Shown here: in pieces, positions 8,691 to 39,005 of the stretch
Position numbering within the stretch: position 1 is the first letter of the stretch
How the letters are laid out: every line of letters starts with the position of its first letter
Source: an uncultured Clostridia bacterium
Lineage (GTDB): Bacteria > Bacillota > Clostridia > Christensenellales > UBA1242
Direction of reading: 5' to 3'
DNA length: 64,000 nt
Assembly (NCBI GenBank): GCA_934754335.1
Contig: CAKVHY010000003.1
Span: 64,419 to 128,418 of the forward strand
Notes under the pieces: model-generated
What the model was told of the DNA's origin: nothing
Seen by the model: only the letters and a program-made list of their open reading frames with translations
Databases searched by the model: none
Position numbers and translations under genes: made by a program

Positions 8691-8742
8691 AATTTTGCCT
8701 GAACAAAATAAGGCATATACTAAATTTAATTGGAGAGATTTT

Positions 8743-9435: not shown

Positions 9436-9449
9436 GAGGTTTAATTTGT

Positions 9450-10448: not shown

Positions 10449-10451
10449 CAA

Positions 10452-10480
10452 AAATAGCAGATGATTTCTGCTATTTTTTA
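10452..10480 (+). terminator. terminator after the GGGtGRT gene
   Basis: The hairpin AAATAGCAGA/TCTGCTATTT is followed by a T-run. Confidence 0.7.
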
Positions 10481-10490
10481 AATAGTACAT

Positions 10491-10526
10491 AAAAAATGAC
10501 CAATTGAACATTGGTCATTTTTTATT
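10491..10526. terminator. terminator for the minus-strand lipoprotein gene (symmetric hairpin)
   Basis: The hairpin AATGACCAAT/ATTGGTCATT is flanked by A6 and T6 runs. Confidence 0.65.
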
Positions 10527-10551
10527 TTAATTTACTCCTTAATAAGCAGGC

Positions 10552-11460: not shown

Positions 11461-11593
11461 ATTTTTCTCCTTTTACTAAATTTTTATATTAAAATTTGAA
11501 ATATTTTGTGCTATATTTAAACAATCTGACAACTTTTATTTCCTTGGTTTTATCAAATCTTTAGCAAAAACAAATCAAATATTAATACCGTTA

Positions 11594-13184
<1,591 letters not shown>

Positions 13185-13945: not shown

Positions 13946-16084
13946 TTATCTAAAACCTTTCAAAATTTCGTTTGGTTTCTTTTTAGCAAAGTTTATAAGC
14001 GGAATAATTGCACCTATTGCAGCAATCAAAACGCTAACACCAAACATAAGCAACACTGCTCCAAAGTTACTACTCATTAAGTTGAACTTAATGAATGTTG
14101 AACCACTAACCAAACTATTTGCAATAACCGAAGCAATTTCTGTTATAAACAATGTTACGATAAATGAAAGAATTACAAACATTGAAGTACTTTGTAAGAA
14201 TATACTTGAGATATTCCAGTTACTAAATCCTAACGCCTTCAAAACGCCAACATCGTTCTTTCTATCAACAATTATTTGATTTATGAAATAATACATCATA
14301 ACAATTGCAAAGAATGCTGAGAAGCAACCAAGCAATATTGCAATAGATTTATATATTTCAATACTACTAGCCATCTCGCCAATGGTTTTGCTTGTGATAG
14401 AACTAAAAACATAACCTTTCGCATCAAAATTCTTAACAATATTTTGAAGTTCTGTGTTATTTGAAGCGGAATAATTTTCAATGCTTATAACCACGCCAGT
14501 TGTAATGGCTTTTGCAACTTCAAAATCTTTTGATGCATGAACCGTTAAGTAAACATTGTTCATGTTATATTTATACATATCCGAAGGTAATTGTTTATTG
14601 ATATAAATAAGAGTTGAAGCATTGGCATAAGTTTCATAGTCTGTGTCGTAAACGCCACAAATTCTATAAGAAACTCCACCTAAAGTGATTGAATGACCTA
14701 TTATATTTTGTTCAATATATGTTTCACCCCACCTACTTTCAACGCTTTCTTGCTCAGGCTCAATTGCTCTTTCAGTAACCCATCTATCGCCAACACCTTG
14801 GCTTAGTCCATAAAGTCTTATAAGCCCTAACATATAATCTGAGATAACTACGCCATCAACTGCACTTTCAGGATACATTCCATAAAGGATTTCTTTTCCG
14901 AATTGGTTATTTGTACCTTTTCTATTAGGCAAAGGTCTTTCAGATCTAATTATGCTAGTTACACTCAATTCCTGATGCTCTCTGCTCATAGGTCTTATAT
15001 CTTCGTCAACATTAAAACTAATATTTAAAGTTGCTTTTTGGAACTCATAATAAGGCTTATCACCTAAAACTTTCTCAATTTGAGTTCTATCATTAGAATT
15101 TTCACTGAAATTAATATGGTTGTACTCATCACTCGATTTTTGAAACATTACATAAGGTGCAATTCTTACATTTTTATCTCTAAATAACGAATTAACTTGC
15201 GCATATGCAGTGTTAAAGTTGCCAAGAATTGCAAATATTCCGAAGAATGACACCGCCAAAGTGCAAAGGATAACCATAAATACAGTTCTCCATCTTCTAT
15301 ATAGCAAACTATCAAGGGCTAAACGGAATGAATATTTATAGCCAAGGCCATGCTTTTTAGTTTGAACCTCTTCAGGTTTTGCAACGCTTTTTTCTTCTTC
15401 TTTCTTTTCCTGCTTTCTTCTAACGTCTCCACCAACAGTGTTGTTTTCCAAAGTTATGATTCTATCTGCATACTTTTCAACCATAGCGCTATCATGGGAA
15501 ACTGAAATAACCAAGCAGTTTTTGGAGATTTCCTTAACTAAATCCCAAATAATTGTTTTATTCTTATCATCTAGATGGGCCGTTGGCTCGTCCATGAATA
15601 AGATTTTTGGAGTTTTAATCAAAGTTCTTGCAATACAAACTCTCTGCCTTTGACCAGAAGAGCATTGCGAAACAGGCCTTTCTTCAAACCCACTCAACTT
15701 AACCTTTTTCAAAACTTGAGCAATTTGATCATCAGTGGGAACTATGCCATTTGCCAAAGTTCCAAGCCTAATATTTTCTTTAATACTCATTGTTTCAATT
15801 AAGTTGTAATCTTCGAAAACAAAGCCGATATGTTCACGCCTATAATTATCAAAATCCTTGCTAGAGAAATTTTTAAAACTCTCGCCATCAATGATAACAT
15901 CGCCCGAATCAAATCTTTCAAGCCCAGCAATAATACTTAAAAGAGTACTCTTACCATTTCCGCTTGCACCACATATAAATGTGATGCCGGAATTATCTAA
16001 CTCAAGGTCTATATTTCGTAAGGCTCTAACCTTACTACCATCTCTGTTATAAAATGTTTTTGATACATTTTTAACTCTAACCAT
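13946..16084 (-). CDS. fused ABC ATPase plus FtsX/MacB-type permease
   Basis: It has Walker A GASGNGKST, the signature CSSGQRQRV, Walker B ILFMDEPTAHLD and a C-terminal FtsX-like TM bundle (VGVLKALGFSN). It starts 11 nt after the sipW-like stop. Confidence 0.85.
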   Translation of the reverse strand: MVRVKNVSKTFYNRDGSKVRALRNIDLELDNSGITFICGASGNGKSTLLSIIAGLERFDSGDVIIDGESFKNFSSKDFDNYRREHIGFVFEDYNLIETMSIKENIRLGTLANGIVPTDDQIAQVLKKVKLSGFEERPVSQCSSGQRQRVCIARTLIKTPKILFMDEPTAHLDDKNKTIIWDLVKEISKNCLVISVSHDSAMVEKYADRIITLENNTVGGDVRRKQEKKEEEKSVAKPEEVQTKKHGLGYKYSFRLALDSLLYRRWRTVFMVILCTLAVSFFGIFAILGNFNTAYAQVNSLFRDKNVRIAPYVMFQKSSDEYNHINFSENSNDRTQIEKVLGDKPYYEFQKATLNISFNVDEDIRPMSREHQELSVTSIIRSERPLPNRKGTNNQFGKEILYGMYPESAVDGVVISDYMLGLIRLYGLSQGVGDRWVTERAIEPEQESVESRWGETYIEQNIIGHSITLGGVSYRICGVYDTDYETYANASTLIYINKQLPSDMYKYNMNNVYLTVHASKDFEVAKAITTGVVISIENYSASNNTELQNIVKNFDAKGYVFSSITSKTIGEMASSIEIYKSIAILLGCFSAFFAIVMMYYFINQIIVDRKNDVGVLKALGFSNWNISSIFLQSTSMFVILSFIVTLFITEIASVIANSLVSGSTFIKFNLMSSNFGAVLLMFGVSVLIAAIGAIIPLINFAKKKPNEILKGFR

Positions 16085-16095
16085 TTTCTCCTCCT

Positions 16096-17286
16096 TTATT
16101 GATTACCCTTATTCGTATCTTTGAAATTAGGTTCCATAGATTTTTTCAAAGATAATTTTGCATTTCTAACTTCCCTAATCTTCAAGTTCTTTTGGTCACC
16201 AGCATTGAAATACAAGAATTTATTAAACCAAATCTTAAATCTATTAGTGATTTTCTTGGTTATAATTCTTCTGCCTTCCACTGCTCTCTTTTTATTCTTA
16301 AGCATAGGATTTTCCAACGCTCTCTTTCTTCTGTTTTTATCTTGCATATATTCATCAACTTGTTGAATTAATTGAACAGATAATAGAAGCAACATAATTC
16401 CGCAAGGAACTTCAACTAACCAAATAATACCTTGTAAAGATCCGCAGAAACCAATTACCTTACCAAACCAAGCCTTGCTTTCTGAATATCTTCCAATAAT
16501 ATAACTTGCAGGAATAATATAACTATCATGTGGAAGAGAATTTGGATTGTGTGGGTTATTTGAATCAGGACCATCGGTTATGAAATATAACTCACCCGTT
16601 ACTGTATCTTGGAATATTTTTTGAATAATATGGAATTTTCTTCCCCTAGAGCCAGCGGATAGCGATGCTTTTTGTAAAGTTTGAGAATCATCACCAGTTT
16701 TTGCATCAGTTACAATAGCCTTTTGCTCTTCAGTACCTTCATAAGTTATAAACTCATGATCAGCCATAAGTTTTTCTTTGATATAAGTATAAGAATTATG
16801 TTGTTCATTCGTTGTTTCAGGAGTTCTAACATAATTTTTGTAATGATTTAGATATGTTAGATATTCACCATCGGGAGCATTTCTTTCCGCACTATTCCAG
16901 ATTTTACCACTGCTTAAATTAGTTAGATAGTTTGCAGTTCCAAGCCTTTGTTCTTCAATTTCAATTGTTTGAATTAAAGTCCAAATCGGACTATTCGCAT
17001 CATAAAAACCAATCTTATCTCCAACTTTTAAATCTTTTATAGGAACTGACTCTAAGACCACCACATCGCCAATATTAAAGCCTTCGCTGACCATAGAACC
17101 CGATAAAACTCTTGCAGCACTCATTCCAAAAAGAGTTGGAACTTCGTTGTTATTTCTAGCACTAAATAGCGAAAAAGTACAAACACCACTCAAGATGATT
17201 ATAGGAACTATAATGATGTCTGTAATAATATCTATTATTTTATAAAACACTTCACCAAATTTCTTCATTTTTAATCCATTTTCCAA
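16096..17286 (-). CDS. sipW: SipW-type (archaeal/ER-type S26) signal peptidase I with a large insertion and an extended basic tail
   Basis: It aligns by eye to B. subtilis SipW: LFGMSAARVLSGSMVSEGFNIGDVVVLE (Ser box), IKDLKVGDKIGFYDANS, FHIIQKI (His box), ITDGPDSNNPHN...IIGRY and a C-terminal TM VPCGIMLLLLSV. At 396 aa against about 190 aa for SipW, the excess is an insert of about 110 aa between the GFYD and His boxes plus a longer tail. Confidence 0.85.
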   Translation of the reverse strand: MENGLKMKKFGEVFYKIIDIITDIIIVPIIILSGVCTFSLFSARNNNEVPTLFGMSAARVLSGSMVSEGFNIGDVVVLESVPIKDLKVGDKIGFYDANSPIWTLIQTIEIEEQRLGTANYLTNLSSGKIWNSAERNAPDGEYLTYLNHYKNYVRTPETTNEQHNSYTYIKEKLMADHEFITYEGTEEQKAIVTDAKTGDDSQTLQKASLSAGSRGRKFHIIQKIFQDTVTGELYFITDGPDSNNPHNPNSLPHDSYIIPASYIIGRYSESKAWFGKVIGFCGSLQGIIWLVEVPCGIMLLLLSVQLIQQVDEYMQDKNRRKRALENPMLKNKKRAVEGRRIITKKITNRFKIWFNKFLYFNAGDQKNLKIREVRNAKLSLKKSMEPNFKDTNKGNQ

Positions 17287-17369
17287 TTCATAATAATAGT
17301 TTTCTCATTCAACAATATTTTACAATTTTTTTAGTAAATATCAAAATGATTTTAATGTATTTCTTTAAA

Positions 17370-17410
17370 TAATAAAAATAAACTTAAAAATTTATTCAAG
17401 TTTATTTTTT
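17370..17410 (-). terminator. terminator after the 227-aa TasA-like gene
   Basis: The hairpin AAATAAACTT/AAGTTTATTT is flanked by A/T runs. Confidence 0.5.
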
Positions 17411-17464
17411 GCATAATATTAAATTATATTTACATTTTAAGTTTTTAATAGGCTGATTAAAAGA

Positions 17465-18148
17465 CTAGGCGAAACTCGAAGAAGTTTGGGAGCCAAGGTT
17501 TAGGATAAAAAGATTATCCGAAACTGAGAAATCCTTTTTGTAATCGTTTAGAGTGTAAACAATCTTTAGAACATAGGTATAACCAGAAGGAATACCCGAA
17601 CCTTCAGGAACTCCTTTCGCTTCATCGTCCACTCTTATACCTTTGTAAATCATGTTGTTCTCACTCAAAAGGTCGGCTCTAGAATCAATAATCCCAACTC
17701 CATCGTAAAAACTACGAGTTATCTGCCCTTCTGAACCAATAGAACTATTAAGACTTTGCAAGGAAATAGTTAGAAAGGTATTGTCGGTGCAAGTATTGGT
17801 GATAGCAATAAACATAGTTATGCTTTGAATTTGAAGAGAATCCGAAGAAGGATTTTTCTTCCATTTAAGTTCGCCCATTCTAAGGCTTATGTCGGTCTGC
17901 CCCATATCTTTGGTGATTTTGGCAGACGACTTGAAATAGTCCAAACCAGTATCGTAAGAAGAAGTGTCTTGACCAAGAGCATATAGGTCAATATCGGCTT
18001 CTACATTGTTAACCTGAATTAAGTTGTTGGAGCCGTTTGAAAATATAAGATTCTTCGATGCAAGCCAGATGGCTATAAACATAGAAAGCAAACAAATAAC
18101 CATGCAGATTATTGTTAAAATCAACTTGGTCGTGTTGTTTAATTTCAT
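17465..18148 (-). CDS. secreted beta-rich protein, divergent TasA/camelysin-like paralogue
   Basis: It has the signal anchor MFIAIWLAS and the pattern RMGELKWKK...ITMFIAITNT shared with the paralogues. It starts 16 nt after the VirD4-like stop. Confidence 0.45.
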   Translation of the reverse strand: MKLNNTTKLILTIICMVICLLSMFIAIWLASKNLIFSNGSNNLIQVNNVEADIDLYALGQDTSSYDTGLDYFKSSAKITKDMGQTDISLRMGELKWKKNPSSDSLQIQSITMFIAITNTCTDNTFLTISLQSLNSSIGSEGQITRSFYDGVGIIDSRADLLSENNMIYKGIRVDDEAKGVPEGSGIPSGYTYVLKIVYTLNDYKKDFSVSDNLFILNLGSQTSSSFA

Positions 18149-18164: not shown

Positions 18165-20210
18165 TTAGATTTGAATACCGCCTTCTTTCTTCCCGCCACG
18201 AAGAACTTTTTGATTACGAATTTTGATATCATAATACATTGATTGCTCGTCAATCGGACTAGGTACTCTGTAAACGTCTCTAGGTTTTCTCATATCGTAT
18301 AAAGGAACTTTGTAAGATGGAGTAAAGATAGAACGCAATGGTGATTGTTGCAAAATAGAAACTATGCATTCGCCTGAATTTGGCTTTAATGCGGCAAGTT
18401 CGGCTGGATAGATTAAAGGACGAGAATCCACGGAAATAGATGTGGTTGTACTAGAAGAATCGTCCTTTTTACCCTTAGATGCTGAAGTGGTTTCGGTTTC
18501 AACTGTAATGTTACCGCATCGCTTACTAAATTCATCAAGAGAACCTTGGTCGTTGGAAGCAATAAAGATATGAATATTGCAGTTATCTTTGATGGTGGCA
18601 GAAACATCTGAACCATACTTAATTTGAAGTTGGGCATAAGATTGAAGAATCAAAGTGAAATAAATCCTTCTTGAACGAGCAACCGTGATAATAGTATCAA
18701 AGTTCTCAATTTTTGGCATGTTACCAAACTCATCTAGCAAGAAATAAACATCTCTTGGCAAAGCCCCGCTCCCACGCTTGTTGGCAACGTCAACTAAGAT
18801 TTTGTAAAGTTGAGAAACGAACATTGTGGCAATTGGGTGCCTTGTGGTTTTTTCATCAGGAATTTTAATAAATAGGGCTGTTGGCTTGTCAGCAAAAGTT
18901 TCTAATTCCATCTCGTTTTTGCTGGTGGCATAACAGATACCTGAATCGGCAAATATGCCCATTCTATCGGTTACAATACCCATATAAGACTTCGCAGTTT
19001 TCTCGGCATTGGTTACAACTTGGTTTGCTAACTGAGCAGCCAAAGATAATGAACCCCTGCCCTGAAAATACTCGGTAATTGAACGAATAGGATTATAGGC
19101 ATCGTTATCTTTTAGGTTTAAAATTTTGCTAAGATTATAGAAATTAAACCTGTCTTTGGTCATGCCAAGTTCGGGATTTTCGCTGTCTTCAAGCATGGCA
19201 AGCATTGTTCCTAACACAAGGTCCTTAGCACCACGCTCCCAAATAGGGTCGTTATTGGATTGAATAGGACAAAGAGTGTTTGCTATATCTCTTAAGTCTT
19301 CAAAGGCGTCATTCTTAAGTTTTTGCTTAACAGATACCATTTGAACCTTCAAAGATTGCTCGTCTGCAAAGGCCTTTCCATCAAATTCATACCAAGTTCG
19401 GTAGTATTGATTAGATGTTAGAGTAAGCCCTGAGTTCCTAGGATCTTCACCTTCATGAACCCTAACTTCCTTTGCAAGATTCATAGCCCTTTCGTTCATT
19501 TCGTAGGCTCTGGTTAATGGGTTCCAGCAGGTACTTTGAAATGGTTCTTTTAAGTCAAAAACTAAAACATTGTAGCCCCTGTCACGAAGTTTTTCTGAAT
19601 GAAGATCGTAAATTTCACCCTTAGGGTCGGTTATAACAAGGCAAGGCTTTGCATGGCTCTCAGATAAGATTTGTATGGTTGGATTTACAAACTGAGTGGT
19701 TTTACCTGAACCGGTAGTACCAATAACCAAGGTGTGAATACTCTTGTACATATTAACTTCAAGTTTGTGACCAATAAGTTCGGCTCTGATAGGAATACCT
19801 ATATTGTCAGACCTAGAAAGTTGGTCATAGGTGTGATACTTAAACTGCGGATCTTTCTTCAATTGCTCGATAGAAAGCCAGTTGGTGTCGTAGTACTTAG
19901 AAACCTTGCCCTTGGTTTTAACTTTAGCACCTGAAGAGCCACCGCCCCCACCGCCAAATAAACCTTTGCCATCGCCAAGATTAAGAAGCAAGAATAATAA
20001 AACAACCAAAAAAGAAACACCAAAAATGCTGTAAAACTTTTGGTCGGAAAATAATTCAATTGAAAACCTAAACTCTTTGTAGGTTAAATAACTTGCTAAA
20101 ACATAAGAAGCACAAAATAAGGCTGCCGCAAAACCAAGCATAATTAGTAAGAAATTAGTAAATCTGCTCCAAAGCGAGCCTTTTTTCTCTTTATCGTCTG
20201 CCATTTCCAT
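18165..20210 (-). CDS. type IV secretion coupling protein (VirD4/TraG/TraD family ATPase)
   Basis: It has two N-terminal TM helices, Walker A GTTGSGKTTQFVNP, VITDPKGEIY, and LLDEFGNMPKIENFDTIITVARSRRIYFTLILQSYAQLQIKYG, which is the T4CP Walker B/Q-loop region. Confidence 0.85.
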   Translation of the reverse strand: MEMADDKEKKGSLWSRFTNFLLIMLGFAAALFCASYVLASYLTYKEFRFSIELFSDQKFYSIFGVSFLVVLLFLLLNLGDGKGLFGGGGGGSSGAKVKTKGKVSKYYDTNWLSIEQLKKDPQFKYHTYDQLSRSDNIGIPIRAELIGHKLEVNMYKSIHTLVIGTTGSGKTTQFVNPTIQILSESHAKPCLVITDPKGEIYDLHSEKLRDRGYNVLVFDLKEPFQSTCWNPLTRAYEMNERAMNLAKEVRVHEGEDPRNSGLTLTSNQYYRTWYEFDGKAFADEQSLKVQMVSVKQKLKNDAFEDLRDIANTLCPIQSNNDPIWERGAKDLVLGTMLAMLEDSENPELGMTKDRFNFYNLSKILNLKDNDAYNPIRSITEYFQGRGSLSLAAQLANQVVTNAEKTAKSYMGIVTDRMGIFADSGICYATSKNEMELETFADKPTALFIKIPDEKTTRHPIATMFVSQLYKILVDVANKRGSGALPRDVYFLLDEFGNMPKIENFDTIITVARSRRIYFTLILQSYAQLQIKYGSDVSATIKDNCNIHIFIASNDQGSLDEFSKRCGNITVETETTSASKGKKDDSSSTTTSISVDSRPLIYPAELAALKPNSGECIVSILQQSPLRSIFTPSYKVPLYDMRKPRDVYRVPSPIDEQSMYYDIKIRNQKVLRGGKKEGGIQI

Positions 20211-20311
20211 TCTTTCCTTTATAATAATTAATAATAGTTTATATTAATTTATAAATATAGTCAAATAAATAACTAAATTTTAAGATAATTGTGTGTCTAA
20301 AAATGTTTAAA

Positions 20312-20346
20312 GGAAAAAATAAAGCAGGTTTATATAACCCGCCTTA
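20312..20346 (-). terminator. terminator after the 970-aa membrane protein gene
   Basis: On the minus-strand RNA, AAGGCGGGTT pairs with AACCTGCTTT (two G-U pairs) and is followed by a T-run. On the plus strand these positions would be A-C mismatches. Confidence 0.6.
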
Positions 20347-20350
20347 TTTT

Positions 20351-28145: not shown

Positions 28146-31100
28146 ATGAGTTCGAAAAAGAAGTTCAATGCAGTTTTGAGCAGTTTTGCTCTAATCATTT
28201 CTGTTTTACTTTTAGGCTTTGGCATTCTGAATATTTTCAAACAAAATCAAGTTTTGGCTCTTAGCGATGAGTTCAACTTTTTTGTTGCCACCACGCCTAT
28301 TAAGCAAACTCAAATCTCAATTGATGAAAATGAGAAAATCCTTCCTGCATACATAACCGATGAGAAGAATAAAAATTATGGTTTTAACTACCTAACCTTC
28401 TCGGATTATTTACAAGTGCAGAAAGATTATGGGTTTAATGCCAACCAAGATATTTTCGTACTAGTCAATAATAATTATATCAAACTTATTTTTGGTGAAG
28501 ACGAGAATGGCAATGTTTACGGAAGCGACCGTGTGAGCAAAGTTGCAAATAAAGAAGCCTTTGACCTTGAAAATGGTACTTATTATGTTAACACCGGCGG
28601 ACAGTTCATTGAAATCACGACCAATAATTTATTTATAGAAAATTCGCTTCAACCATACTCTTATTCTATCTATAAATTAGTGAACGGAGATACTGGCGCA
28701 ACGTTTGAAAGGTACAACAACGAGATTAAGTCTAAGAGCAGTGATAATTCCAGTGCTTTTTTACCGAACTATTATTCAAACAACGTTGAGAACCTTTATA
28801 TAGAAGTTTCTAAGGAATACGCCCTATCTAAAGGTGGTTATAAAATCGCTAAAACCACGGAGGTTAATGGTCAAGAAATAATTCAAGTTCAAACTGACGA
28901 AACTGATGGCAAATATTATATTCCACTATATGATGAAGTTTTGGCTTCTAATCTTTCCGCCACCCAACAGAAATTTGTTACATTAGATAACTACAAAGCA
29001 AAGCAAAATTTAATTAATGGTTTTACAACAAATGAAAATGTTGAATCTATTTACTTAAGTATCGGTAGCGCATATCTTGAAGGTTTGAATACAAACTTCA
29101 ATCGTATTACTCGTTTAGATGAAGTTTCTATCACCCTTCAAAACCAATACTATAGCGGTTTGAGAGTTTTAGCAGAAAAACCAATTCTTCAAACTCTAGA
29201 TAGCGGTAACTCTAACTATTTTTGGTATCAATATATTGATCTTGAAAACGTTAGATACAAAGAAAACGAAAATATTGAAAATTCAGATACTATTTTAGTA
29301 AAACACCCTGAAGGTTTATATACCTTTGTATTTTCTGGGCAATACACCACCGCCGATGGCAAAGCAACTGAATTTAATTTTAAATATGAAGTTTATCTAA
29401 ATAAAACTAGCAATATTACAAGTTTCCCTGATTTCAACACGTTATTAAAATCTAACGATAAGCAATATTTTGATAAAGATTTGGACGAGAATTCTTACAA
29501 AACATATTTCTATAACTTCCAAACTCAAGAGTTCCCTACCTACACCTTTGATGCATCTAGATACAATCTTTCAGTTAATCAAACAATTAACTTAGTTGAA
29601 ACTAATTACACTTATGATTTCAAATCCTTATACAGAGAAGAAACTAAACCAGAAGTCACAGATTTTAACGCTAAAGAAAAAGCACTTGTCACTGAATATA
29701 TAAATGGTGCTAGGAATAAAGAAACATTGATTGTGGCTGAAAAACGTACGCTTAATATAAGTGAGATAAATAGTTCGCTTATTTCTAACGACCTGAAAGA
29801 AACTATTTCCCCTGAAAGTGAAGAATTAGCATATCAGAATGTTTATGTTTATTCCTACATATATAAATCACGAACTAGCGGATTTGACGCAATAAATTAT
29901 CTTTCTGATGGTTGGGGTAATTTTGAATACAAATTAACAAGTTTGATTTTTGAGAAAGAAACAACCGATGAAGAAACAGGCTTAAAAACCAAAACCTATA
30001 TCATTAAGCATTACAAAACCACTGATATAGATAAAGTTTCTGAAAGCGATATCATGCTATATTTAAATAGTAGCGACCTGATTAAGAAGGAGAAAATTGA
30101 GTACTCTCAAAACCTAACAGTTAAAAATACCACTGAAAACGAGATAGGTATTTTAACAACATACAAATATGGCGTGTTAGAAACCGGCTTATTTGATGGC
30201 GAAAATGAAAATGATATCACTGGTTACAAATTTTCACTAACAAACAACTTAACAAGAAAGGTTATCACAAAAGAAGCAAATAACAAAGTTGTTCTATCTG
30301 TTCAAAACCCTTATGGCGTAACAGAAGATAATTTCAACACGTTGAATGAGTATCTAACATTATCAGAACATAATCAAACACAAACAGATGAAAAAGGTAA
30401 TAAACTTACATACAAAAATGTTATCTCTTCCCCTACTCTAGATAATCTATCTAATTTCGATGCATTTAGATTTGATTATGAAATTGTTTATAGCGAACTT
30501 GGAGTTTTTACATTAGAAAATAGATACACACTTGGAATTAAACACGTAAATTATGATGGCGGAGATTTGAATGCCACGCTTAATAACGCAGGGCTTAACA
30601 ACATATCTTTCGTTGTGGATTCAAATGCCACAAACACAGTTTACGATTTTAAAAATGAATATAAATATAAAATTTTAGTCAATAATGCTGAAGAAATACG
30701 TAATGCAAGATATAGAAAATATGGCTACACATTGCATATTTTCGGAATTAAATCATATTTCAATAAGAATGGGAAAACCGAATTTAAAAACGTTTCTGAA
30801 GGCATTTATAGCGATTTAACAGAAAATGTTAATAATAGAATTAAAGATGAAAAAGAATCGATTTTAAGCATCTTATCTAATGGTAATTTAGTAACAACGT
30901 CTAAAACAATAACCTTAAAAGCAGATGCAAAACTTAATGATGCTTTAAGGCCAATTGGCAATGTACCTGTTACAAATATGACCCCTATCACCTTTGATTT
31001 CTTTGGATTATATTCCTTCAATGGATTAGTTCCGATTTCAAGATACTATGTTTATGATTTTGATTACGACGAAGATGGAAAACCTTATATCACTAATAAC

Positions 31101-34100
31101 ACTCCTCGTGCAATAAAATATTTCACTAAGGACGACCAACCTTCAGAAAGCGGTTATTATGAAATTATTGCTGAATATAAGTACAATATCTATGACGATA
31201 TTTTCAACAACCTTATAAACACAAAGTTCTATCAAGTATTCGCTTTCGTAATTGATAAATCTAACCCTAAAACCACATATGAACGTTTGACTACTGTAAT
31301 CGACACTCCAACCACATCTCATAACGCTTGGGAAAAATTAGTGGTTAGCAAAGACAACTCCCCTTACACAAACGATGCAGTTAGAATTACATGGAGTCAA
31401 AATTCATTCTTCCAATACGATATTATTCCATATTTCCAAAAGACAAACTTTGATGGCATTATTGTTGGAACGAATGGTAGCCAAAGTACTAGCGGTTATG
31501 AGCAATTAAAAACTGCCACCACAACTAAATACGCTGTGGGTTACACAATCACAAATCGAGCAGGCATACAAGTATTTAAACAAATTGTGGATATAAATGG
31601 CAAACCATTATCTATGCAAAAATATGCAAACTCTGGTTTGTATCTCGTTCCAGTATTTGATATTTACTTTGGCGAAACATTGAAGTACAAGGATATGTAT
31701 CCTTTGGATTTCTTAAATTCTAAACTTGTTGACGAATTGGAAAATGAAGAAAATGTTCGATATGTTTATAAGAAGGACGTAAATCAGGTTTACGTTTCAA
31801 AAAATGCGAATGTTACACATTATGTTAATTTAGAAACTCCAGAAACATCATCAATTGCCCTTTGGGGAAGCGGAATATATAATTTCCATTTAAAATATGG
31901 CTTTAATAATGGTGCTAGTTTAACTCAGAAATTTGTGTTCGACTACACAGATTTAACAGGACTTAAAGTTTTGCCTGTGAACCCAGATTCAAACTCTATC
32001 ACTTCCTCTTTTGATAACAACACAAGCAATCTTATAACCAAACCTTTCACATTTGTTTATGATAAACGTCCAAGTGGTTCTTCAATTACCACCACCTACA
32101 CCGCTATTCCATTTAAGAACAACAACGATATTTTAAGATTGTTCTTATCTGACAACTTAGAAGGCATTAGCGGAACACAAAATATAAACCCTGCAAACGC
32201 TATTCAAGATGTTAGTTATGAATATGATTATTCGTTCTTCAAATTTGGAGATAGTGTTTACAACAAAAATATTTTCAAGCCCTCATCTTCAATGCTTTAT
32301 ATCTTCAATCTAACCGACACCGCAGGCAACACTTCTAAATATTTCGTTGCATTCGATGTTTCAAATCCAAACTTCTTCTTAGACGTGGAAGGCGAAGATA
32401 GTTTCATTGAAAAATATGGAATTATAACTGATTTTGCAAATATCTCTTGGGGAAATTACAAAGCAATCAACATTACAAACTCAAACAACCTTTCAGATAC
32501 AAATTTATTTGATAAATTCATATTCGGCAATGGAATAAACTATGAAGCATCAAGCCTTGAAACAATGCTTAGAGATGTTTATAAGAATAATAGCAATTAT
32601 TCTGGCATGAAATTAACAAGAGTTTGGAGTATTAAAACTTTAGATGGTGATAGAAACCTAGAAATTGAAAAAGAGTTTATAAATGAAGATGGTTCAATAA
32701 ATCTAGATAAAGTTTATACAAAAACAATAAGTAGAAAATTAGGATATTATATTGATAGTGCTTGCACAAAAGCATTAGTACTTGGCAATAACGGAAAGCC
32801 ACTAGTTTCATACTATTTCTTAATTCCAATTAGGAATGTTAATTTCCAATATTACAACACAAATTCAGACGATAGCAATATCTACTCTTTCAATTACTCC
32901 ACTGATGCAACAGGGGTTTTGGCAAAGAACTCCACATATCTATCTCCAACTAAAAAGGCACTTGCTTCTAAATTTGGAGTTGGCGTTCGTGAAATTGAAC
33001 AAGACGTTAATCACGAATATGGTTTCTATGGAGAAAAGAAATATATTTATGTTATCACCGATTTGCTTGGAAATGAATGCGGAAACACATTGTGGATGAA
33101 CTTAGATTTAACGCTTGCGATGAGTTTTGGTAGTTTTGATTTAACCTATGAAAAATTGAACTACTCCCCTAACATGACGTTATATAACCTAACCACTTAT
33201 TCATCATACTCTATATCTCAATTATATTTCAGTTGGCTTGTGGACGATAAAATCCCAAAGAGCAGAATTGATTATAAGTTCTATGATTTCGATACCGATT
33301 TCTATGCAAATTACATTATTACAAATGTAACTTACAATGACGTCACAAACGAATACACATTTAAGTTTACAAATAAATTAGATCAATCAACAAAAGATAT
33401 TGTTATATCAGATAAGAAGTTAAACAACTACAATGCAGATGACGAAGAAGTTAATGAGCCAAACAGCATTTATCCATTTGCATTAAACTCTGAGCGTGGT
33501 TGGCAATTAATTGTAAATAATTCACAAACAGATTCTAAAAATAATAGTTCTTATTATGATGCAAGTGAGAAACGTTATTATAGCAATATAATCAACCCTG
33601 CAAGCAAAGGCTCAACAAATTATGAATGCACAAAAAATGGCTTATATGTTTTCAGAAGAACCTACACTGATTATATAGACGCAAATGGTCTTGTTAAAGA
33701 TTCAAGAGAAAATCTTGGTGATGGACTTAAGAACGACACAGTTTATAGATATTATGTTTACTATGTTGATACAAATGGCATTATTGATTTAACTAATATC
33801 TCAAACTTAAATTTCATTCTTGGTGCGGGAATGAACGATGCTGATTATGAAAACAAATCATTCAACGAACAAACCATAAATAATAGGTTAGAAAAAGCAT
33901 CAACTAAGGACGTTGCATATAGCAGTATGAAAGTTAGCAATCTATTCCTAACAAATAGAGAACTTGTTCAATTCAATCTTTCAATGGATAAATACAACCA
34001 AGCAGTAAGTTATAACAACTTCATTGATAGAACAGATTATAACAATGCAACAAACATTGTTGATAATTACGATTCAGCCGGCGGAAACTTAGAGCAAGGC

Positions 34101-37100
34101 TTAAAGAACGCTCAAACACGTTTAACTTATTTAATAAATAGATTTGTTTATGGCATCGGAGAGAGCAATCTAAACGTAAAAGATTTTGATGCAAAAACAT
34201 ATTATAATCAAAGATTCCTAATGCGTTTAACATTAACGTTTGGAACAAGTACTCAGTTAATTGGTGTTAAAGAAGGTAAAACCAACCTTATCTCCCCTGA
34301 TAAGAACTTAAGTGAAAATTATTTATTAAATTCACTAAATAATAGGTCAAACGACGTATCTCAAAACCACCCTACAGGCTTCACAGATAGGTCAACATTA
34401 AAAGATGGCATTATTTTAAATAGAAGCAATGCAGGATTAAATAGCAATCTAACTTATAACTACAAAGTGCTAGTGGCAGATAGTTCGGGAATAACAGAAG
34501 GCGCAGATATGAGCAAATGGAATATGTTTGCAAACGATCTAACCCTAGAGTTCGGAATTGATTATTCCACTCCAAAAGGTTATTACTTTGGAAAGAGCGC
34601 ATCAGCAGAATATGAATCTTCAGCCAATGGTGATTACGACTATGCTTATGCCCTATTCAACGATATCACCGAATCACTTTCCACAACCAATTTGGAAAAC
34701 CTAAACGATGGCGCAACCGAACAAGTTATTGGCGATAAAACAGTTTCTGTTTTAACTTCAACAAATAACGATACGCTTATATTCGTATTTGAAAAAGCAG
34801 TTGATAAAACCGATGCAGAAATAGAACCAAATGCAGTAACAGTTACAAGAACATTGCCTAATGGCACACCACAAGTTATCTTTAAAGTGGAACTTACAAC
34901 CGATGCTCAAGGAAACACCACGCAAGTTTTCACTTCATCAATGGGTTACACAACTGAAAGATTAAAACAAGCATTCCTATCTAACGCAGGTTTGAAAGGT
35001 GCTAATTCAAAAGCCGATAAATGGGCAATAGTTGTATTCGATAACTACAATAAAAATTATAAAAAAGATAGTGCGTTATCTGACCCTTCAATTAACGCAA
35101 CATATGAAATTTCTATTCAGTATAAAGGATTATCTAGCGATTATTTGAATAACGACGGAACAAAGTCTAATTTCATTGGAAATTATCAAATAACTGTGGA
35201 TAACACAAAACCACTTTATAACCTTATCTATTTAATGGAAAATGATAAGTTTATTCCACGTAAAACTGCTACCTCAGGGCTTCCATCAGGATATTTAGAT
35301 AGCCTAAATAATAGCGGTTATACAAGTTATATTGAGAGATACTATGCTAATCTAAAAGGTACTCCTCTTGATAAACAATATGCCCTAGAACAAATATATA
35401 ATTATTATATTGAAAGTTATTACACCTATCAAAACGATAAAAAACTTGCTTATCAGGACCTAGACGGAAATGATTATCTAACACCAAATAATGAACCAAT
35501 ATATAAAACATATATTCAAAATTATTTCTTTGGTGTAACTAAAAACTTTGAATTAAAATCTGGCAGTAGCGATTTTAGATTTGATTCAAATAGAATTTAT
35601 TATAGAGAAATTTCAAATCCAAGAACATATAGATTTACTTTAACTCCTGATGATTTCCCAACAGCAGAAGATAAAAACAGAGTTAATGAATTAAGCCTTT
35701 ATGAAGTGTTTGATTCAAGCAGATTTGAATTTGCTGAAAACTCACAATTCATCGAAAATGGCGTTGGTAAGTATTTTGAAATAGTGGAAGAAGATGAAGC
35801 AGGCAACTACAGAGTTTATGCTATATATGTTGCAGATGATTTATCAATCAAATATTCATATGCAAAAGCAAAAAATTCCAAGTTAAATGATGAAGATTTA
35901 AATGGCACATTGAATAACGTTTCAAATAGTGTTGATGTTTATGGTACAAATCTAGAATTAGAATTAAACACAAATTTAGATAAAGTTGATAAATTCTTAA
36001 AAGCAGAGATTTATGTAACATATTCTGCTAGCGAATATCAATATGGCACAAATAAACAAAATTATAAAGCCTCTTCCCCTATCACCTTATATCTAGACCC
36101 AATCAATGCCAAAATCATGTTTAATTCTAATGGTTATCCAATAGAATTACCTGAAGGCTTAAGCGGAGATTTAAGCGAAATTGAATTAAATAACTACCCT
36201 GCAAAGTTCCTTGAATATATAACTAAAATTTGCGATATAATCACAATTGACAACGCAGGCGTGGCAGACTTTAATTTATCAATAAAGATAACTTCAAGAA
36301 CAAGCGAAAACTTGGCAATTGAGTACTATTATCCGGGTGAAATGCTAAAATATGTTAAGAATGGATATATAATTTCTATTCCTTCAGACACAGAATTTAG
36401 AAGCACAAAAATTACAAGTATTCAAATCGCAAAATATGAAACCTCTTGGAAAACTTTAACTAGAGATTTCAGTCCTAGCCAAGTTCAAATCCCAGATGGC
36501 GAATGGATTAGTTTGGGCGGACGATCATTTACGTTAACTAATGGAACATTCAGAATAATCTTAACAGACAACTTCGGAAGAGTGGCAACATATTATGAAA
36601 CTTGGAATGCAAGTTCTGTTAATCATGGAATTTCATATTCGGGCAAAACTCAAAGCCTAAATGGTGAAACTTACACAGCAAAAACCACGAGCGTTACATT
36701 TGATCCTTCTAGATATAACCCTGTGGTTATAGTGGAAGAAAATAACGGAAATAAAGTTATCTACACAGATTTTGAAAATATCAATAATTATTATAAAATT
36801 ACAAGCACCACTTCTAGCACAAATCAATCTTCAGTTAATTACTTAAGATTTAATCAAGATGCTGGATATTGGAGCAAATTTACAGTTATTCTTCTATCAG
36901 TTGCGAACTTAAATATCGATTTAACAAATATTGATTTAAACACATTCAATGCTTGGTTCGAAGAAAATAAAAACTCAATTGAAAATGCCACATATTCATT
37001 TATTCTTTATACAAAACTTCCAGAAATTCAGTTGAAAAACCTAAATGGTGGAATTATTGCAAAGAATAACGGACAGATATTCATTGAAGATTTAGCAATC

Positions 37101-38924
37101 GTTTGGAATGAAAGATATTTAGACGATAAAACAGTTAATTTCAATGCAAAATTAAATTTAAGAAGATATTATAACAAAACAAATTATAATTCTGTTATAA
37201 CAACAAATAATTATAGAATAAACCTTCCGGGTGATTACTTCATTTCATTAACAAATGATTTGGATTACACTTCTGAAGAGATTAGATTCACAAGAGCCGA
37301 AGGCAACACAATTTTATATTCTATCTATTCAGTAACTTCTAATGGTTATTCCACTCAATTATCTGAATCTTCCTACACAGAAGTATTTGAAAACGAAACT
37401 GTTTATAATTACTATGCTTTAGATAACTTTAATAATTATGATAGTACTGGCTCCCCTATTAAATCTAGAGACCATATAGACATTGTAACAAACACAAATA
37501 ACGGAATAGTTTATGAGTTTATCAATAAAGATGAAAATTCAAAAACTTACCTATTTAGAATTTATAAATTATCTAATGACGGAACAAAAATAACATTTAG
37601 ATTTGTTAGAATAAATTTCATTACAAAAACATCTGGAAACTTCTCGGGATTACGACTAATTTATTCTAATAATATTGATGGAACAACGGTTGGTGAAAAT
37701 ATATCTTACCAAAGCAATACAGTTAAATCCACAAAAGATTTATTATATATTTTATTTACAAATGAAAATACATATAACGAGAAGAAAGGAAATTCAATCT
37801 TTATCGAGCATTACTTCAATGGAATATTGGTTGATTCAATGAAGATGGAAGACCTTCAATCATTAAATGGAATTTACAGTGATAAAGATAAAACAAAAGA
37901 ATACTTAGATAAATATTTATCGATAAGTTCTGGCGGAATACATAAATTTGTTGTTAGAGATTTAGCCGGAAACGTATCTAAATTCAATGGAGTTGATTAC
38001 TTAAATATTTATTTGATTAATCAAATAGTATTTAATATTAATAACGAAGAACCTTTGAATGGACAGATATTCAATGATGAAGTATATTTAGAAGTTCTAA
38101 CAAAATTAGAAGGCATCACATTATATGATTCATTTAATATTGAAGTATATAAGAATAGCGTTCAAATCACTCCTGAAATCACTGCTTTAAATACTTACAA
38201 GTTCTCTGAATCTGGTTATTACTTTATAAAGATTACAGCAGATGTTCAATTAAGTTCAGATCTTCAAAAAGAAACTATTTCTTCTGAATTCAACTTTAAG
38301 ATTGTAAATCCTAAAACAACGCTTCACACATTTGATATTTCAAGCGGAAACAACTTTAAAGTTCTATCGGTTGAAAAGAAAATTGAAATGACTGATGATA
38401 CTGATTATGTTATCCTACCTTTAACTTCATACACTTCCCTATGGCTATCTGCTGAAGATGAAGCCACAGGCACAGGTTTCTATAGAATAACATTGCAAGG
38501 TTATATTGAATCAATTAAACAATATAGACAGTTCTCATTCAATGTTTGGTTGAGTTCTGCCACTCCAACAATCACTTCTTCAATTGAATTTGGAACTTCA
38601 ACCACCGATCCAATCACATTATCTTACAATGCAAAATCAATTTACGAGGCAATTGGTGAAAGTAAGATTTTGATAAATGATATGGTGATTGCAGAAATCA
38701 ATGCCGATAGCGTTGATAAGATTTCCACTATAACGCTTACTTATGCTCGTGATTATTGGGTTCAAATATACACAGCAGATGATAAATTGGTTGCTTCTTA
38801 TAAAGTTACTAAGAAAGAACCTTTAAACTCTAATGCAAAAATAATCATTGCCGTGGCGGCAGTGGTGACAATCTCACTAACAGTTATATTTATAATCATT
38901 AGAAGAAAAACTAGATTTAAATAA
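28146..38924 (+). CDS. giant (3,592 aa) surface protein with an N-terminal signal peptide and a C-terminal TM anchor
   Basis: It is a single uninterrupted ORF. The N-terminus is MSSKKKFNAVLSSFALIISVLLLGFGILNIF...VLALS. The C-terminus AKIIIAVAAVVTISLTVIFIIIRRKTRFK is a TM helix plus basic tail, with no LPXTG. The composition is N/Y/T/S/K-rich with no obvious internal tandem repeats. The SD GGGAGA precedes the ATG at 28146. Confidence 0.8.
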   Translation: MSSKKKFNAVLSSFALIISVLLLGFGILNIFKQNQVLALSDEFNFFVATTPIKQTQISIDENEKILPAYITDEKNKNYGFNYLTFSDYLQVQKDYGFNANQDIFVLVNNNYIKLIFGEDENGNVYGSDRVSKVANKEAFDLENGTYYVNTGGQFIEITTNNLFIENSLQPYSYSIYKLVNGDTGATFERYNNEIKSKSSDNSSAFLPNYYSNNVENLYIEVSKEYALSKGGYKIAKTTEVNGQEIIQVQTDETDGKYYIPLYDEVLASNLSATQQKFVTLDNYKAKQNLINGFTTNENVESIYLSIGSAYLEGLNTNFNRITRLDEVSITLQNQYYSGLRVLAEKPILQTLDSGNSNYFWYQYIDLENVRYKENENIENSDTILVKHPEGLYTFVFSGQYTTADGKATEFNFKYEVYLNKTSNITSFPDFNTLLKSNDKQYFDKDLDENSYKTYFYNFQTQEFPTYTFDASRYNLSVNQTINLVETNYTYDFKSLYREETKPEVTDFNAKEKALVTEYINGARNKETLIVAEKRTLNISEINSSLISNDLKETISPESEELAYQNVYVYSYIYKSRTSGFDAINYLSDGWGNFEYKLTSLIFEKETTDEETGLKTKTYIIKHYKTTDIDKVSESDIMLYLNSSDLIKKEKIEYSQNLTVKNTTENEIGILTTYKYGVLETGLFDGENENDITGYKFSLTNNLTRKVITKEANNKVVLSVQNPYGVTEDNFNTLNEYLTLSEHNQTQTDEKGNKLTYKNVISSPTLDNLSNFDAFRFDYEIVYSELGVFTLENRYTLGIKHVNYDGGDLNATLNNAGLNNISFVVDSNATNTVYDFKNEYKYKILVNNAEEIRNARYRKYGYTLHIFGIKSYFNKNGKTEFKNVSEGIYSDLTENVNNRIKDEKESILSILSNGNLVTTSKTITLKADAKLNDALRPIGNVPVTNMTPITFDFFGLYSFNGLVPISRYYVYDFDYDEDGKPYITNNTPRAIKYFTKDDQPSESGYYEIIAEYKYNIYDDIFNNLINTKFYQVFAFVIDKSNPKTTYERLTTVIDTPTTSHNAWEKLVVSKDNSPYTNDAVRITWSQNSFFQYDIIPYFQKTNFDGIIVGTNGSQSTSGYEQLKTATTTKYAVGYTITNRAGIQVFKQIVDINGKPLSMQKYANSGLYLVPVFDIYFGETLKYKDMYPLDFLNSKLVDELENEENVRYVYKKDVNQVYVSKNANVTHYVNLETPETSSIALWGSGIYNFHLKYGFNNGASLTQKFVFDYTDLTGLKVLPVNPDSNSITSSFDNNTSNLITKPFTFVYDKRPSGSSITTTYTAIPFKNNNDILRLFLSDNLEGISGTQNINPANAIQDVSYEYDYSFFKFGDSVYNKNIFKPSSSMLYIFNLTDTAGNTSKYFVAFDVSNPNFFLDVEGEDSFIEKYGIITDFANISWGNYKAINITNSNNLSDTNLFDKFIFGNGINYEASSLETMLRDVYKNNSNYSGMKLTRVWSIKTLDGDRNLEIEKEFINEDGSINLDKVYTKTISRKLGYYIDSACTKALVLGNNGKPLVSYYFLIPIRNVNFQYYNTNSDDSNIYSFNYSTDATGVLAKNSTYLSPTKKALASKFGVGVREIEQDVNHEYGFYGEKKYIYVITDLLGNECGNTLWMNLDLTLAMSFGSFDLTYEKLNYSPNMTLYNLTTYSSYSISQLYFSWLVDDKIPKSRIDYKFYDFDTDFYANYIITNVTYNDVTNEYTFKFTNKLDQSTKDIVISDKKLNNYNADDEEVNEPNSIYPFALNSERGWQLIVNNSQTDSKNNSSYYDASEKRYYSNIINPASKGSTNYECTKNGLYVFRRTYTDYIDANGLVKDSRENLGDGLKNDTVYRYYVYYVDTNGIIDLTNISNLNFILGAGMNDADYENKSFNEQTINNRLEKASTKDVAYSSMKVSNLFLTNRELVQFNLSMDKYNQAVSYNNFIDRTDYNNATNIVDNYDSAGGNLEQGLKNAQTRLTYLINRFVYGIGESNLNVKDFDAKTYYNQRFLMRLTLTFGTSTQLIGVKEGKTNLISPDKNLSENYLLNSLNNRSNDVSQNHPTGFTDRSTLKDGIILNRSNAGLNSNLTYNYKVLVADSSGITEGADMSKWNMFANDLTLEFGIDYSTPKGYYFGKSASAEYESSANGDYDYAYALFNDITESLSTTNLENLNDGATEQVIGDKTVSVLTSTNNDTLIFVFEKAVDKTDAEIEPNAVTVTRTLPNGTPQVIFKVELTTDAQGNTTQVFTSSMGYTTERLKQAFLSNAGLKGANSKADKWAIVVFDNYNKNYKKDSALSDPSINATYEISIQYKGLSSDYLNNDGTKSNFIGNYQITVDNTKPLYNLIYLMENDKFIPRKTATSGLPSGYLDSLNNSGYTSYIERYYANLKGTPLDKQYALEQIYNYYIESYYTYQNDKKLAYQDLDGNDYLTPNNEPIYKTYIQNYFFGVTKNFELKSGSSDFRFDSNRIYYREISNPRTYRFTLTPDDFPTAEDKNRVNELSLYEVFDSSRFEFAENSQFIENGVGKYFEIVEEDEAGNYRVYAIYVADDLSIKYSYAKAKNSKLNDEDLNGTLNNVSNSVDVYGTNLELELNTNLDKVDKFLKAEIYVTYSASEYQYGTNKQNYKASSPITLYLDPINAKIMFNSNGYPIELPEGLSGDLSEIELNNYPAKFLEYITKICDIITIDNAGVADFNLSIKITSRTSENLAIEYYYPGEMLKYVKNGYIISIPSDTEFRSTKITSIQIAKYETSWKTLTRDFSPSQVQIPDGEWISLGGRSFTLTNGTFRIILTDNFGRVATYYETWNASSVNHGISYSGKTQSLNGETYTAKTTSVTFDPSRYNPVVIVEENNGNKVIYTDFENINNYYKITSTTSSTNQSSVNYLRFNQDAGYWSKFTVILLSVANLNIDLTNIDLNTFNAWFEENKNSIENATYSFILYTKLPEIQLKNLNGGIIAKNNGQIFIEDLAIVWNERYLDDKTVNFNAKLNLRRYYNKTNYNSVITTNNYRINLPGDYFISLTNDLDYTSEEIRFTRAEGNTILYSIYSVTSNGYSTQLSESSYTEVFENETVYNYYALDNFNNYDSTGSPIKSRDHIDIVTNTNNGIVYEFINKDENSKTYLFRIYKLSNDGTKITFRFVRINFITKTSGNFSGLRLIYSNNIDGTTVGENISYQSNTVKSTKDLLYILFTNENTYNEKKGNSIFIEHYFNGILVDSMKMEDLQSLNGIYSDKDKTKEYLDKYLSISSGGIHKFVVRDLAGNVSKFNGVDYLNIYLINQIVFNINNEEPLNGQIFNDEVYLEVLTKLEGITLYDSFNIEVYKNSVQITPEITALNTYKFSESGYYFIKITADVQLSSDLQKETISSEFNFKIVNPKTTLHTFDISSGNNFKVLSVEKKIEMTDDTDYVILPLTSYTSLWLSAEDEATGTGFYRITLQGYIESIKQYRQFSFNVWLSSATPTITSSIEFGTSTTDPITLSYNAKSIYEAIGESKILINDMVIAEINADSVDKISTITLTYARDYWVQIYTADDKLVASYKVTKKEPLNSNAKIIIAVAAVVTISLTVIFIIIRRKTRFK

Positions 38925-38943: not shown

Positions 38944-39005
38944 AAGATAATCTAGATTTTGAAGTGAACCCTATGGGGTTCACTTCATTTTAGATTATCT
39001 TTTTT
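38944..39005. terminator. long bidirectional hairpin terminator between convergent genes
   Basis: AGATAATCTAGATTTTGAAGTGAACCC pairs with GGGTTCACTTCATTTTAGATTATCT, flanked by an A-run and a T-run. Confidence 0.75.

Follow-up and report, generated by a model that had tools for sequence, protein, structure and literature searches.

Why would a bacterial chromosome carry a gene for a type IV coupling protein (T4CP) beside that of a very large polytopic membrane protein, with neither a VirB4 ATPase nor a relaxase encoded nearby? This question is raised by a 64,000-nucleotide stretch from an uncultured Clostridia bacterium (Christensenellales, UBA1242; assembly GCA_934754335.1, contig CAKVHY010000003.1, positions 64,419 to 128,418), hereafter called the window, which has a guanine-plus-cytosine (GC) content of ~31% and carries housekeeping genes such as pheST with a T-box leader, addAB, mnmA, recX, acpS and two tRNAs. 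The initial annotation of the window had described the T4CP as an orphan exapted for export of protein or fibre. Our analysis indicates that the two genes listed below probably encode the coupling protein and the VirB6-position channel subunit of a chromosomal, relaxase-less type IV secretion system (T4SS), the VirB4 of which is either encoded elsewhere or was lost.

18165..20210, minus strand: type IV coupling protein, VirD4/TraG family, CD1115-type (Pfam, NCBIfam, transmembrane (TM) helices, Walker motifs, and the ratio of nonsynonymous to synonymous substitution rates, dN/dS)
20351..23284, minus strand: VirB6-position polytopic protein of 'extended VirB6' architecture, Mbov_0396/MMCAP2_0566 homologue (NCBIfam, AlphaFold2, gene order)

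The coupling protein and the neighbouring membrane protein

Families were assigned by searching the window's open reading frames (ORFs) of at least 100 amino acids (aa) against Pfam and NCBIfam profiles with curated cut-offs. The first ORF, of 681 aa (679 aa in the public gene call, which starts at 20204), had been annotated as a T4CP, and this was fully borne out. Its sequence matched T4SS-DNA_transf (PF02534; E 2.8e-52, 178.6 bits against a cut-off of 20.1), TraG-D_C (PF12696; E 7e-34, 116.9 bits) and TrwB_AAD_bind (PF10412; E 2.1e-26, 93.1 bits), as well as the NCBIfam model NF045973 (VirD4-like conjugal transfer protein, CD1115 family), with 319.1 bits against a cut-off of 250. Two N-terminal hydrophobic helices (aa 20-38 and 61-79), the Walker A motif GTTGSGKTT (aa 164-172), the Walker B motif LLDEFGNMP (aa 491-499) and the segment ILQSYAQL (aa 521-528) were all located.

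Related loci are designated here by L-numbers, and related proteins or protein clusters by P-numbers; L001, L002 and L006 come from sister species of the same genus, and L007 from a further lineage whose T4CP is 76% identical to that of the window. When the window was compared with L001, the T4CP showed 95.7% aa identity and a dN/dS of 0.020 at a dS of 1.6, that is, with synonymous sites close to saturation; the corresponding values for MnmA, used as a comparison, were 97.0% and 0.014. The T4CP is thus under strong purifying selection, with a constraint at housekeeping level. More than 120 sequence clusters related to it at 55-96% identity were found, the hosts of which were all metagenome-assembled genomes of uncultured Clostridia, Clostridiales or Christensenellales, together with gut or rumen metagenomes. 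In a neighbour-joining tree, these chromosomal T4CPs formed a monophyletic clade, and the nearest plasmid T4CPs, all annotated as CD1115 family, were only 27-32% identical to the window protein.

The membrane protein ORF comprises 977 aa, and public records start it at 23263, giving 970 aa (P0241, 100% identical). It scored above cut-off with two NCBIfam models, NF045848 (MMCAP2_0566 family; 142.4 bits, cut-off 90) and NF045889 (Mbov_0396 family ICE element transmembrane protein, where ICE stands for integrative and conjugative element; 90.3 bits, cut-off 70), the best-scoring stretch being aa 358-522, which covers only the C-terminal half of both models. AlphaFold2, applied to aa 8-560 together with 69 homologues, gave a model with a predicted local distance difference test (pLDDT) value of 81 and a predicted TM-score (pTM) of 0.79. 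In this model, two sets of three long membrane helices enclose an alpha/beta domain at approximately aa 160-385 and are followed by an amphipathic helix. The remaining tail (aa 541-977, 437 aa) consists of 17% Ala and 13% Lys, so that both the six-helix core and the Ala/Lys-rich tail of about 430 aa proposed initially were recovered. Given the basic N-terminus and the number of helices, the alpha/beta domain would be extracellular and the 437-aa tail cytoplasmic. Compared with L001, the protein had a dN/dS of 0.24 and 60% aa identity, with 72-87% conservation in the TM segments and 22-55% in the loop presumed to be extracellular and in a portion of the tail. The exposed parts of the membrane protein evolve fast and the motor, i.e., the T4CP, slowly.

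With regard to its family, the membrane protein had no match to PF04610 (TrbL/VirB6) or to any other Pfam profile even at E <= 10, and Pfam domains were found in none of 70 homologues. Sequence searches of the PDB with the protein alone and with the family profile returned only coiled-coil noise, and a tblastn search of plasmids gave no match; tblastn with VirB6 itself reached only close rhizobial relatives. Judged by sequence, it is not a member of the TrbL/VirB6 family PF04610. Nevertheless, we consider it probably a VirB6 by function and position, since it is polytopic, lies in relatives between pilin and VirB4 genes, belongs to the VirB6-like family of the Mycoplasma ICE and has an 'extended VirB6' shape. 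Orthologues were found directly upstream of VirB4 in L005, L009, L010, L013-L018, L020-L022, L053 and L075-L083, an arrangement not seen in the window.

Pilins, the conserved locus and the position of VirB4

The description of the T4CP as an orphan did not hold, as the window also contains three PF18895-type pilin genes and a giant surface-protein gene, with a Rho-like gene between them, and VirB4 stands beside the VirB6-like gene in 13 related loci.

40451..40855, minus strand: VirB2-like pilin paralogue, 134 aa (PF18895 22.4 bits and NF045849 29.7 bits, both below cut-off; family alignment)
40955..41371, minus strand: VirB2-like pilin, 138 aa (PF18895 28.4 bits, cut-off 26.6; NF045849 46.1 bits, cut-off 40)
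41485..41889, minus strand: VirB2-like pilin, 134 aa (PF18895 27.7 bits; NF045849 44.1 bits)
28128..38924, plus strand: giant surface protein, 3598 aa (hydropathy, composition, neighbourhood)
39004..40128, minus strand: Rho_N / Rho RNA-binding-like protein (Pfam Rho_N 5.4e-07)

PF18895 is the T4SS_pilin family and NF045849 the Mbov_0395 family of pilin-like conjugal transfer proteins. The three pilin genes lie in tandem, 18 kb from the T4CP/VirB6-like pair, and their products have the VirB2 layout of two hydrophobic or TM helices around a charged loop. The 90% identity between the products of 40955-41371 and 41485-41889 points to a recent duplication of these genes in tandem, and the third pilin is 39-40% identical to both. 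The giant protein had no Pfam or NCBIfam match; it carries a signal or TM segment at the N-terminus, an ectodomain rich in N, T, S and Y and, at the C-terminus, a TM anchor with a basic tail. Homologous giant genes stand next to pilin and T4CP genes in L003, L005, L007 and L046; from this neighbourhood, the giant protein is a candidate adhesin of the system. The Rho-like gene sits between the giant gene and the pilins and has a counterpart in the same position by the giant gene of L003 (20756-21892). Its NCBIfam Rho matches fall in the N-terminal part only, and the protein sequence contains no P-loop/Walker A motif and no ATPase domain. It is tentatively included in the system, and might act on transcription of the 10.8-kb giant gene.

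A TraX-family protein (PF05857, E 1.7e-42) is encoded at 725-1465 on the plus strand, with scores below cut-off for the NCBIfam F-pilin acetylase TraX and TrbP models. TraX-family proteins are common in Firmicutes; given the VirB2-like pilins of the window, this one could in principle be a pilin acetylase.

We mapped the window proteins and the VirB4 of one relative by tblastn onto 22 loci of the chromosomal clade. Thirteen of these (L005, L009, L010, L013-L018, L020-L022 and L053) shared one gene order, namely VirB4, the VirB6-like gene, one to three pilins and a divergently transcribed T4CP, and additional pilin-VirB6-like-VirB4 loci were found in a metagenome scan. The VirB6-like protein, the VirB4 ATPase, the T4CP and between one and three VirB2-like pilins make up the conserved gene set, to which the giant protein is often linked. 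Flanking genes vary by lineage and are of housekeeping type (rpsF-ssb-rpsR, glyS, mnmA, gap, PFOR, PPDK and mreB-minDE), and the annotated related loci contained no relaxase, integrase or transposase family. The genes 3' of VirB4 in L053 (242, 233 and 81 aa) were considered as further conserved components and rejected as lineage-specific.

A more distant group of T4CPs (39-45% identity) likewise occurs in what look like chromosomal surroundings, together with genes for a giant protein, a pilin and a VirB6-like protein. The idea that this group represents mobile elements was dropped, L023 and L041 having housekeeping flanks and no relaxase. In L023 and L037, the giant genes are unrelated to that of the window and directly follow the T4CP gene. 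Upstream of the L023 locus, at 2786-5727, a gene pair (~167 aa and ~123 aa) without family matches is repeated three times in tandem.

In view of the missing relaxase and integrase and of the housekeeping flanks, the locus is not part of a conjugative element. Since the T4CP is constrained like mnmA and the flanks are of housekeeping type, the system would be domesticated, that is, fixed in the chromosome and vertically inherited across a large clade of low-GC, uncultured Clostridia from gut and rumen; this interpretation as a whole is, in our judgement, likely to be correct.

As regards VirB4, the proteins of the relatives are 880-894 aa long, with two N-terminal TM helices and the Pfam domains P-loop_TraG, DUF87 and AAA_10. 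One of them, P0121, scored 592.6 bits with NF045975 (Mbov_0397 family ICE element conjugal transfer ATPase; cut-off 590), and similarity to the CD1110 family was weak (152 bits, cut-off 325). In the window, and also in L001, L002, L006 and L007, the VirB6-like gene is immediately followed by the T4CP gene in the same orientation; in the window, 140 bp separate the two. The slot after the VirB6-like gene thus holds VirB4 in other lineages and the T4CP in this genus and in L007. The full locus of L053 adjoins mnmA and a TM2-domain gene, both of which also neighbour the locus of the window, and these shared neighbours suggest that in this genus the locus was rearranged in place. Other lineages have dispersed gene sets: in L070/L071 a solitary VirB4 gene (10001-12604) adjoins gidA-gidB-parA-parB in the region of the replication origin, L074 is a second such case, and L004 has the T4CP and a pilin alone.

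In line with the initial annotation, profile searches of the window found no VirB4, VirB1 or relaxase family, nor any integrase, and tblastn with the VirB4 proteins of two relatives gave nothing in the window even at E < 10. A public contig of 145 kb contains the window as its positions 141-64140, and we also analyzed the 8 kb past the left end of the window, which together with it make up 72 kb, about half, of this contig. No VirB4, relaxase or integrase was present in these additional 8 kb either; the T4SS genes that could be added to the pair, the pilins, are inside the window itself. A metagenome scan with a VirB4 alignment yielded nothing attributable to this genus, and ranking VirB4 candidates by amino-acid composition gave no discrimination. 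Two candidates for the VirB4 of this genome were rejected: cluster P0172 comes from a different lineage, in which the locus is complete, and the composition around P0227, a solitary, origin-proximal VirB4 with 35% GC, is nearest to L004 and not to the window (L070 correlated with L004 at r = 0.958 and with the window at r = 0.90).

Adjacent secreted-protein genes and competing explanations

Immediately after the T4CP, and again upstream of the VirB6-like gene, the window contains genes for secreted proteins and their processing, which were not counted in the T4SS.

13946..18148, minus strand: genus-only module, not counted in the T4SS (profiles, hydropathy, hidden Markov model (HMM))
17465-18148, minus strand: secreted or anchored 'TasA-like' protein, 227 aa, start 16 bp after the T4CP stop
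16096-17286, minus strand: SipW/archaeal-type signal peptidase I, 396 aa, with a long C-terminal extension and a second TM helix
13946-16084, minus strand: fused MacB-type ABC transporter
24158..27883, minus strand: four further paralogues of the 227-aa protein (198, 204, 236 and 266 aa), between the giant and VirB6-like genes (alignment)

The four additional paralogues are 15-23% identical to the 227-aa member, and each of the five proteins has an N-terminal hydrophobic signal or anchor segment. An HMM built from the five matched only the window, L001, L002 and L006 in hmmsearch; the family was absent from L007 and from all other T4CP loci. The initial annotation had placed a secreted protein directly after the T4CP, and the 16-bp spacing is kept within the genus. 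Its TasA label was not confirmed: the paralogues matched neither Peptidase_M73/TasA/camelysin nor any other Pfam or NCBIfam family, and an AlphaFold2 model of the 227-aa protein, with the five window paralogues as alignment, had a pLDDT of 46 and indicated only an all-beta fold after an N-terminal helix. The neighbouring signal peptidase, whose SipW/archaeal-type domain is N-terminal, scored 44.9 bits with TIGR02228, below the cut-off of 51.85. Considering the N-terminal segments and this adjacent SipW-type peptidase, export of the paralogues is expected to proceed via Sec and the peptidase and not via the T4CP. The secreted-protein module looks like an insertion into the T4SS locus.

On the reading that we prefer, that of a relaxase-less T4SS, the T4CP, anchored by its two TM helices, would select a cytoplasmic macromolecule and pass it into a channel built from the polytopic VirB6-like protein, the long, presumably cytoplasmic tail of which could dock ATPases. 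The pilins would lengthen the conduit across the wall, contact with a target cell would fall to the giant surface protein and VirB4, if present, would power assembly. In this genus, the T4CP would have moved into the VirB4 slot, with the pilins 18 kb off and the secreted-protein cluster inserted. As substrate, we tentatively favour DNA or a DNA-protein complex, transferred in a contact-dependent manner and with no canonical relaxase involved, as chromosomal DNA is in Mycoplasma, because of the homology to the Mycoplasma ICE/chromosomal-DNA apparatus and the DNA-translocase ancestry of T4CPs; delivery of proteins or effectors is somewhat less probable. The proposal that the T4CP was exapted away from DNA transfer is sustained only in part: the lack of a relaxase is consistent with it and a non-conjugative, or at least non-canonical, role is plausible, but of the two kinds of substrate DNA is the one that we favour.

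Has VirB4 been lost altogether, so that in this genus, and perhaps in the L007 lineage, the T4CP in the VirB4 slot is the sole ATPase of a VirB6-like/pilin channel? The negative searches of the window and the adjoining 8 kb would fit such a machine, as would the VirB6-like-to-T4CP gene order in the window, L001, L002, L006 and L007, with the T4CP in a position that VirB4 holds in other lineages, the very strong constraint on the T4CP, and the fact that no VirB4 cluster among those listed, the best 120 of 322 matches, was matched to this species. However, VirB4 occurs in every known T4SS and is the only component of which this is true (PMC12102498), about half of one contig was covered, and the list of VirB4 relatives is not exhaustive. 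Moreover, because VirB4 is solitary elsewhere on the chromosome in L070 and L074, not finding it in 72 kb says little about whether the genome lacks it. We therefore regard loss of VirB4 as unlikely, and a VirB4 encoded elsewhere in this genome as quite probable.

Two further explanations remain. If the T4CP were an orphan that had been exapted for exporting its neighbour, the TasA-like fibre protein, or else the giant protein, this would account for the 16 bp between the T4CP stop and the 227-aa start, which is maintained in the sister species, for the five paralogues that surround the T4CP/VirB6-like pair and for the lack of a relaxase in the window. T4CPs, however, recruit cytoplasmic substrates and not Sec pre-proteins, and the signal or anchor segments of the five paralogues and of the giant protein, next to a SipW-type peptidase, point to Sec. 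Furthermore, the paralogues are missing from every other T4CP locus, even that of L007, and the T4CPs of the clade are equally conserved in genomes without this family; homology to TasA was not demonstrated by profiles or by the structure model. We consider export of these proteins by the T4CP very unlikely. It is still harder to defend a decaying, functionless remnant of an integrated conjugative element from which VirB4, relaxase and integrase were deleted. Components homologous to ICE and plasmid conjugation proteins, in a window lacking VirB4 and relaxase, are what such a remnant would leave, but the T4CP has a dN/dS of 0.020 and intact Walker motifs, conservation extends to the pilins and to the TM core of the VirB6-like protein, and more than 100 sequence clusters retain the module among housekeeping genes.

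Several observations weigh against the T4SS that we favour. There is no VirB4 in the 72 kb of the 145-kb contig that were covered, and none of the best 120 of 322 VirB4 relatives was matched to this species. The T4CP and the 227-aa gene are likely co-expressed or co-transcribed, judging from their spacing. The pilin and VirB4 scores with NCBIfam models barely exceed the cut-offs, and what the giant and Rho-like proteins are proposed to do is deduced solely from gene neighbourhood. Of the earlier TrbL/VirB6-like label, the part that stands is drawn from gene position, topology and the Mycoplasma ICE family, and no TrbL/VirB6 profile match accompanies it. In hhalign, the family profile aligned to the VirB6 of Agrobacterium pTiC58, a single VirB6 sequence and not the full TrbL profile, with a probability of 0.4%. 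Similarly, Foldseek with the membrane-protein model found no match in the PDB at E <= 0.001; chains of R388 TrwI/VirB6 occupied ranks 3-7, at the non-significant level of E 1.5-1.6, with a probability of ~0.1 and target-normalised TM-scores of 0.14-0.21.

A few features of the window are independent of this argument. A scan for promoters and terminators gave counts not above those in shuffled sequence. At 8634-11433, nucleotide identity to L001 is 89-96%, compared with ~80-85% on either side, and a 302-aa gene inside this block has a dS of 0.07 as against 0.7-1.7 in adjoining genes; the block looks like a recent interspecies recombination tract. A MazF/PemK-type toxin gene (6312-6662, minus strand) has an 80-aa small ORF immediately upstream in the public annotation (L064 14670-14912), with which it likely forms a type II toxin-antitoxin pair. 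The protein encoded between addA and an MFS transporter gene, at positions 51080-53020 (minus strand), is 646 aa long, carries three TM helices at its N-terminus and matched neither Pfam nor NCBIfam. Finally, leucine-rich-repeat surface proteins of BspA/PARCEL type recur near T4SS genes in several of these genomes:

Window, 62789-63991, minus strand: leucine-rich-repeat (BspA/PARCEL-type) protein
L064, 4474-5928: leucine-rich-repeat (BspA/PARCEL-type) protein
L003, 3911-5359: leucine-rich-repeat (BspA/PARCEL-type) protein
L070, 13724-17851: leucine-rich-repeat (BspA/PARCEL-type) protein
L023, 91-1005: leucine-rich-repeat (BspA/PARCEL-type) protein

Comparison with known secretion systems

In the Mycoplasma ICE, CDS5 is described as VirD4, CDS15 as VirB3-like, CDS16 as likely VirB6 and CDS17 as VirB4 (PMC12857230); CDS15, CDS16 and CDS17 were described as a minimal monoderm T4SS, and transposon insertions in each of CDS5, CDS15, CDS16 and CDS17 abolish transfer of the element. 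We infer that CDS15, CDS16 and CDS17 correspond to Mbov_0395, Mbov_0396 and Mbov_0397, the family cut-offs of which are passed by the pilin, the TM protein and the relatives' VirB4, respectively. In relatives such as L053, but not in the window, these three are also consecutive genes in the order pilin, TM protein and VirB4, and both systems are minimal sets in which VirB1- and VirB8-like genes are not recognizable. By contrast, the locus described here has no mobile element, DDE transposase or integrase, is bordered by housekeeping genes and is seemingly inherited vertically. Its host belongs to a walled Clostridia lineage and not to the Mollicutes, its T4CP is of the CD1115 family, its membrane protein, three times as long, includes a putative extracellular domain and a tail of 437 aa, and in this genome VirB4 is not adjacent.

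The Patescibacteria T4SS, for instance that of Southlakia epibionticum (PMC12102498, PMC12857230), resembles the present system in being monoderm, MPF-FATA-derived, chromosomal and relaxase-less, in its array of divergent VirB2-like pilins (PF18895), in a T4CP that is often encoded apart from virB4 and in the location of a T4SS gene near the replication origin, as seen here for the VirB4 of L070. The two differ in host phylum, which is here represented by Clostridia/Christensenellales, so that membership in the Patescibacteria-type VirB4 clade or host group is unlikely, and in VirB4, which in the relatives of the window matches the Mycoplasma ICE family. In addition, the T4CP is highly constrained here and non-essential in S. 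epibionticum.

With the CD1115/CD1110 systems of Firmicutes, such as the CTn elements of C. difficile and the pLS20-like plasmids of Bacillus, the locus shares a T4CP that passes the CD1115 equivalog cut-off. It departs from them in that this T4CP is only 27-32% identical to those of plasmids, the membrane protein has no plasmid homologue, and there is no relaxase or mobile-element context. The membrane protein itself agrees with the 'extended VirB6' proteins (PMC12857230) in being polytopic, with at least five TM helices and large hydrophilic domains, and in standing beside VirB4 in relatives. Unlike VirB6/TrbL proteins, it shows no profile similarity to PF04610, and its likeness to the R388 TrwI structure is non-significant.

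No paper describing such a system in Clostridia was found in the literature. VirB2-type pilins are not known in Gram-positive T4SSs other than those of Patescibacteria, and whether Gram-positives have dedicated non-conjugative T4SSs is a long-standing open question (PMC12857230); for most Mycoplasma ICE genes, homologues were reportedly lacking outside the Mollicutes (PMC6030558). If our interpretation is right, the idea of a 'domesticated T4SS' would extend from Patescibacteria to Bacillota, the Clostridia module would be a possible evolutionary source, or sister, of the Mycoplasma ICE transfer module, and lineages in which VirB4 is adjacent, dispersed or possibly absent would be natural variants with which to ask what each ATPase does. 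Should the machine instead prove to lack VirB4, it would be the first of T4SS type without a component held to be universal.

Taken together, the nearest systems by sequence are the Mycoplasma ICE module and the CD1115/CD1110 systems of Firmicutes, and the nearest biological analogue is the Patescibacteria T4SS. On a wider and less probable reading, the cell-cell interactions of a large clade of uncultured gut Clostridia may rely on a non-conjugative T4SS like that of Patescibacteria.

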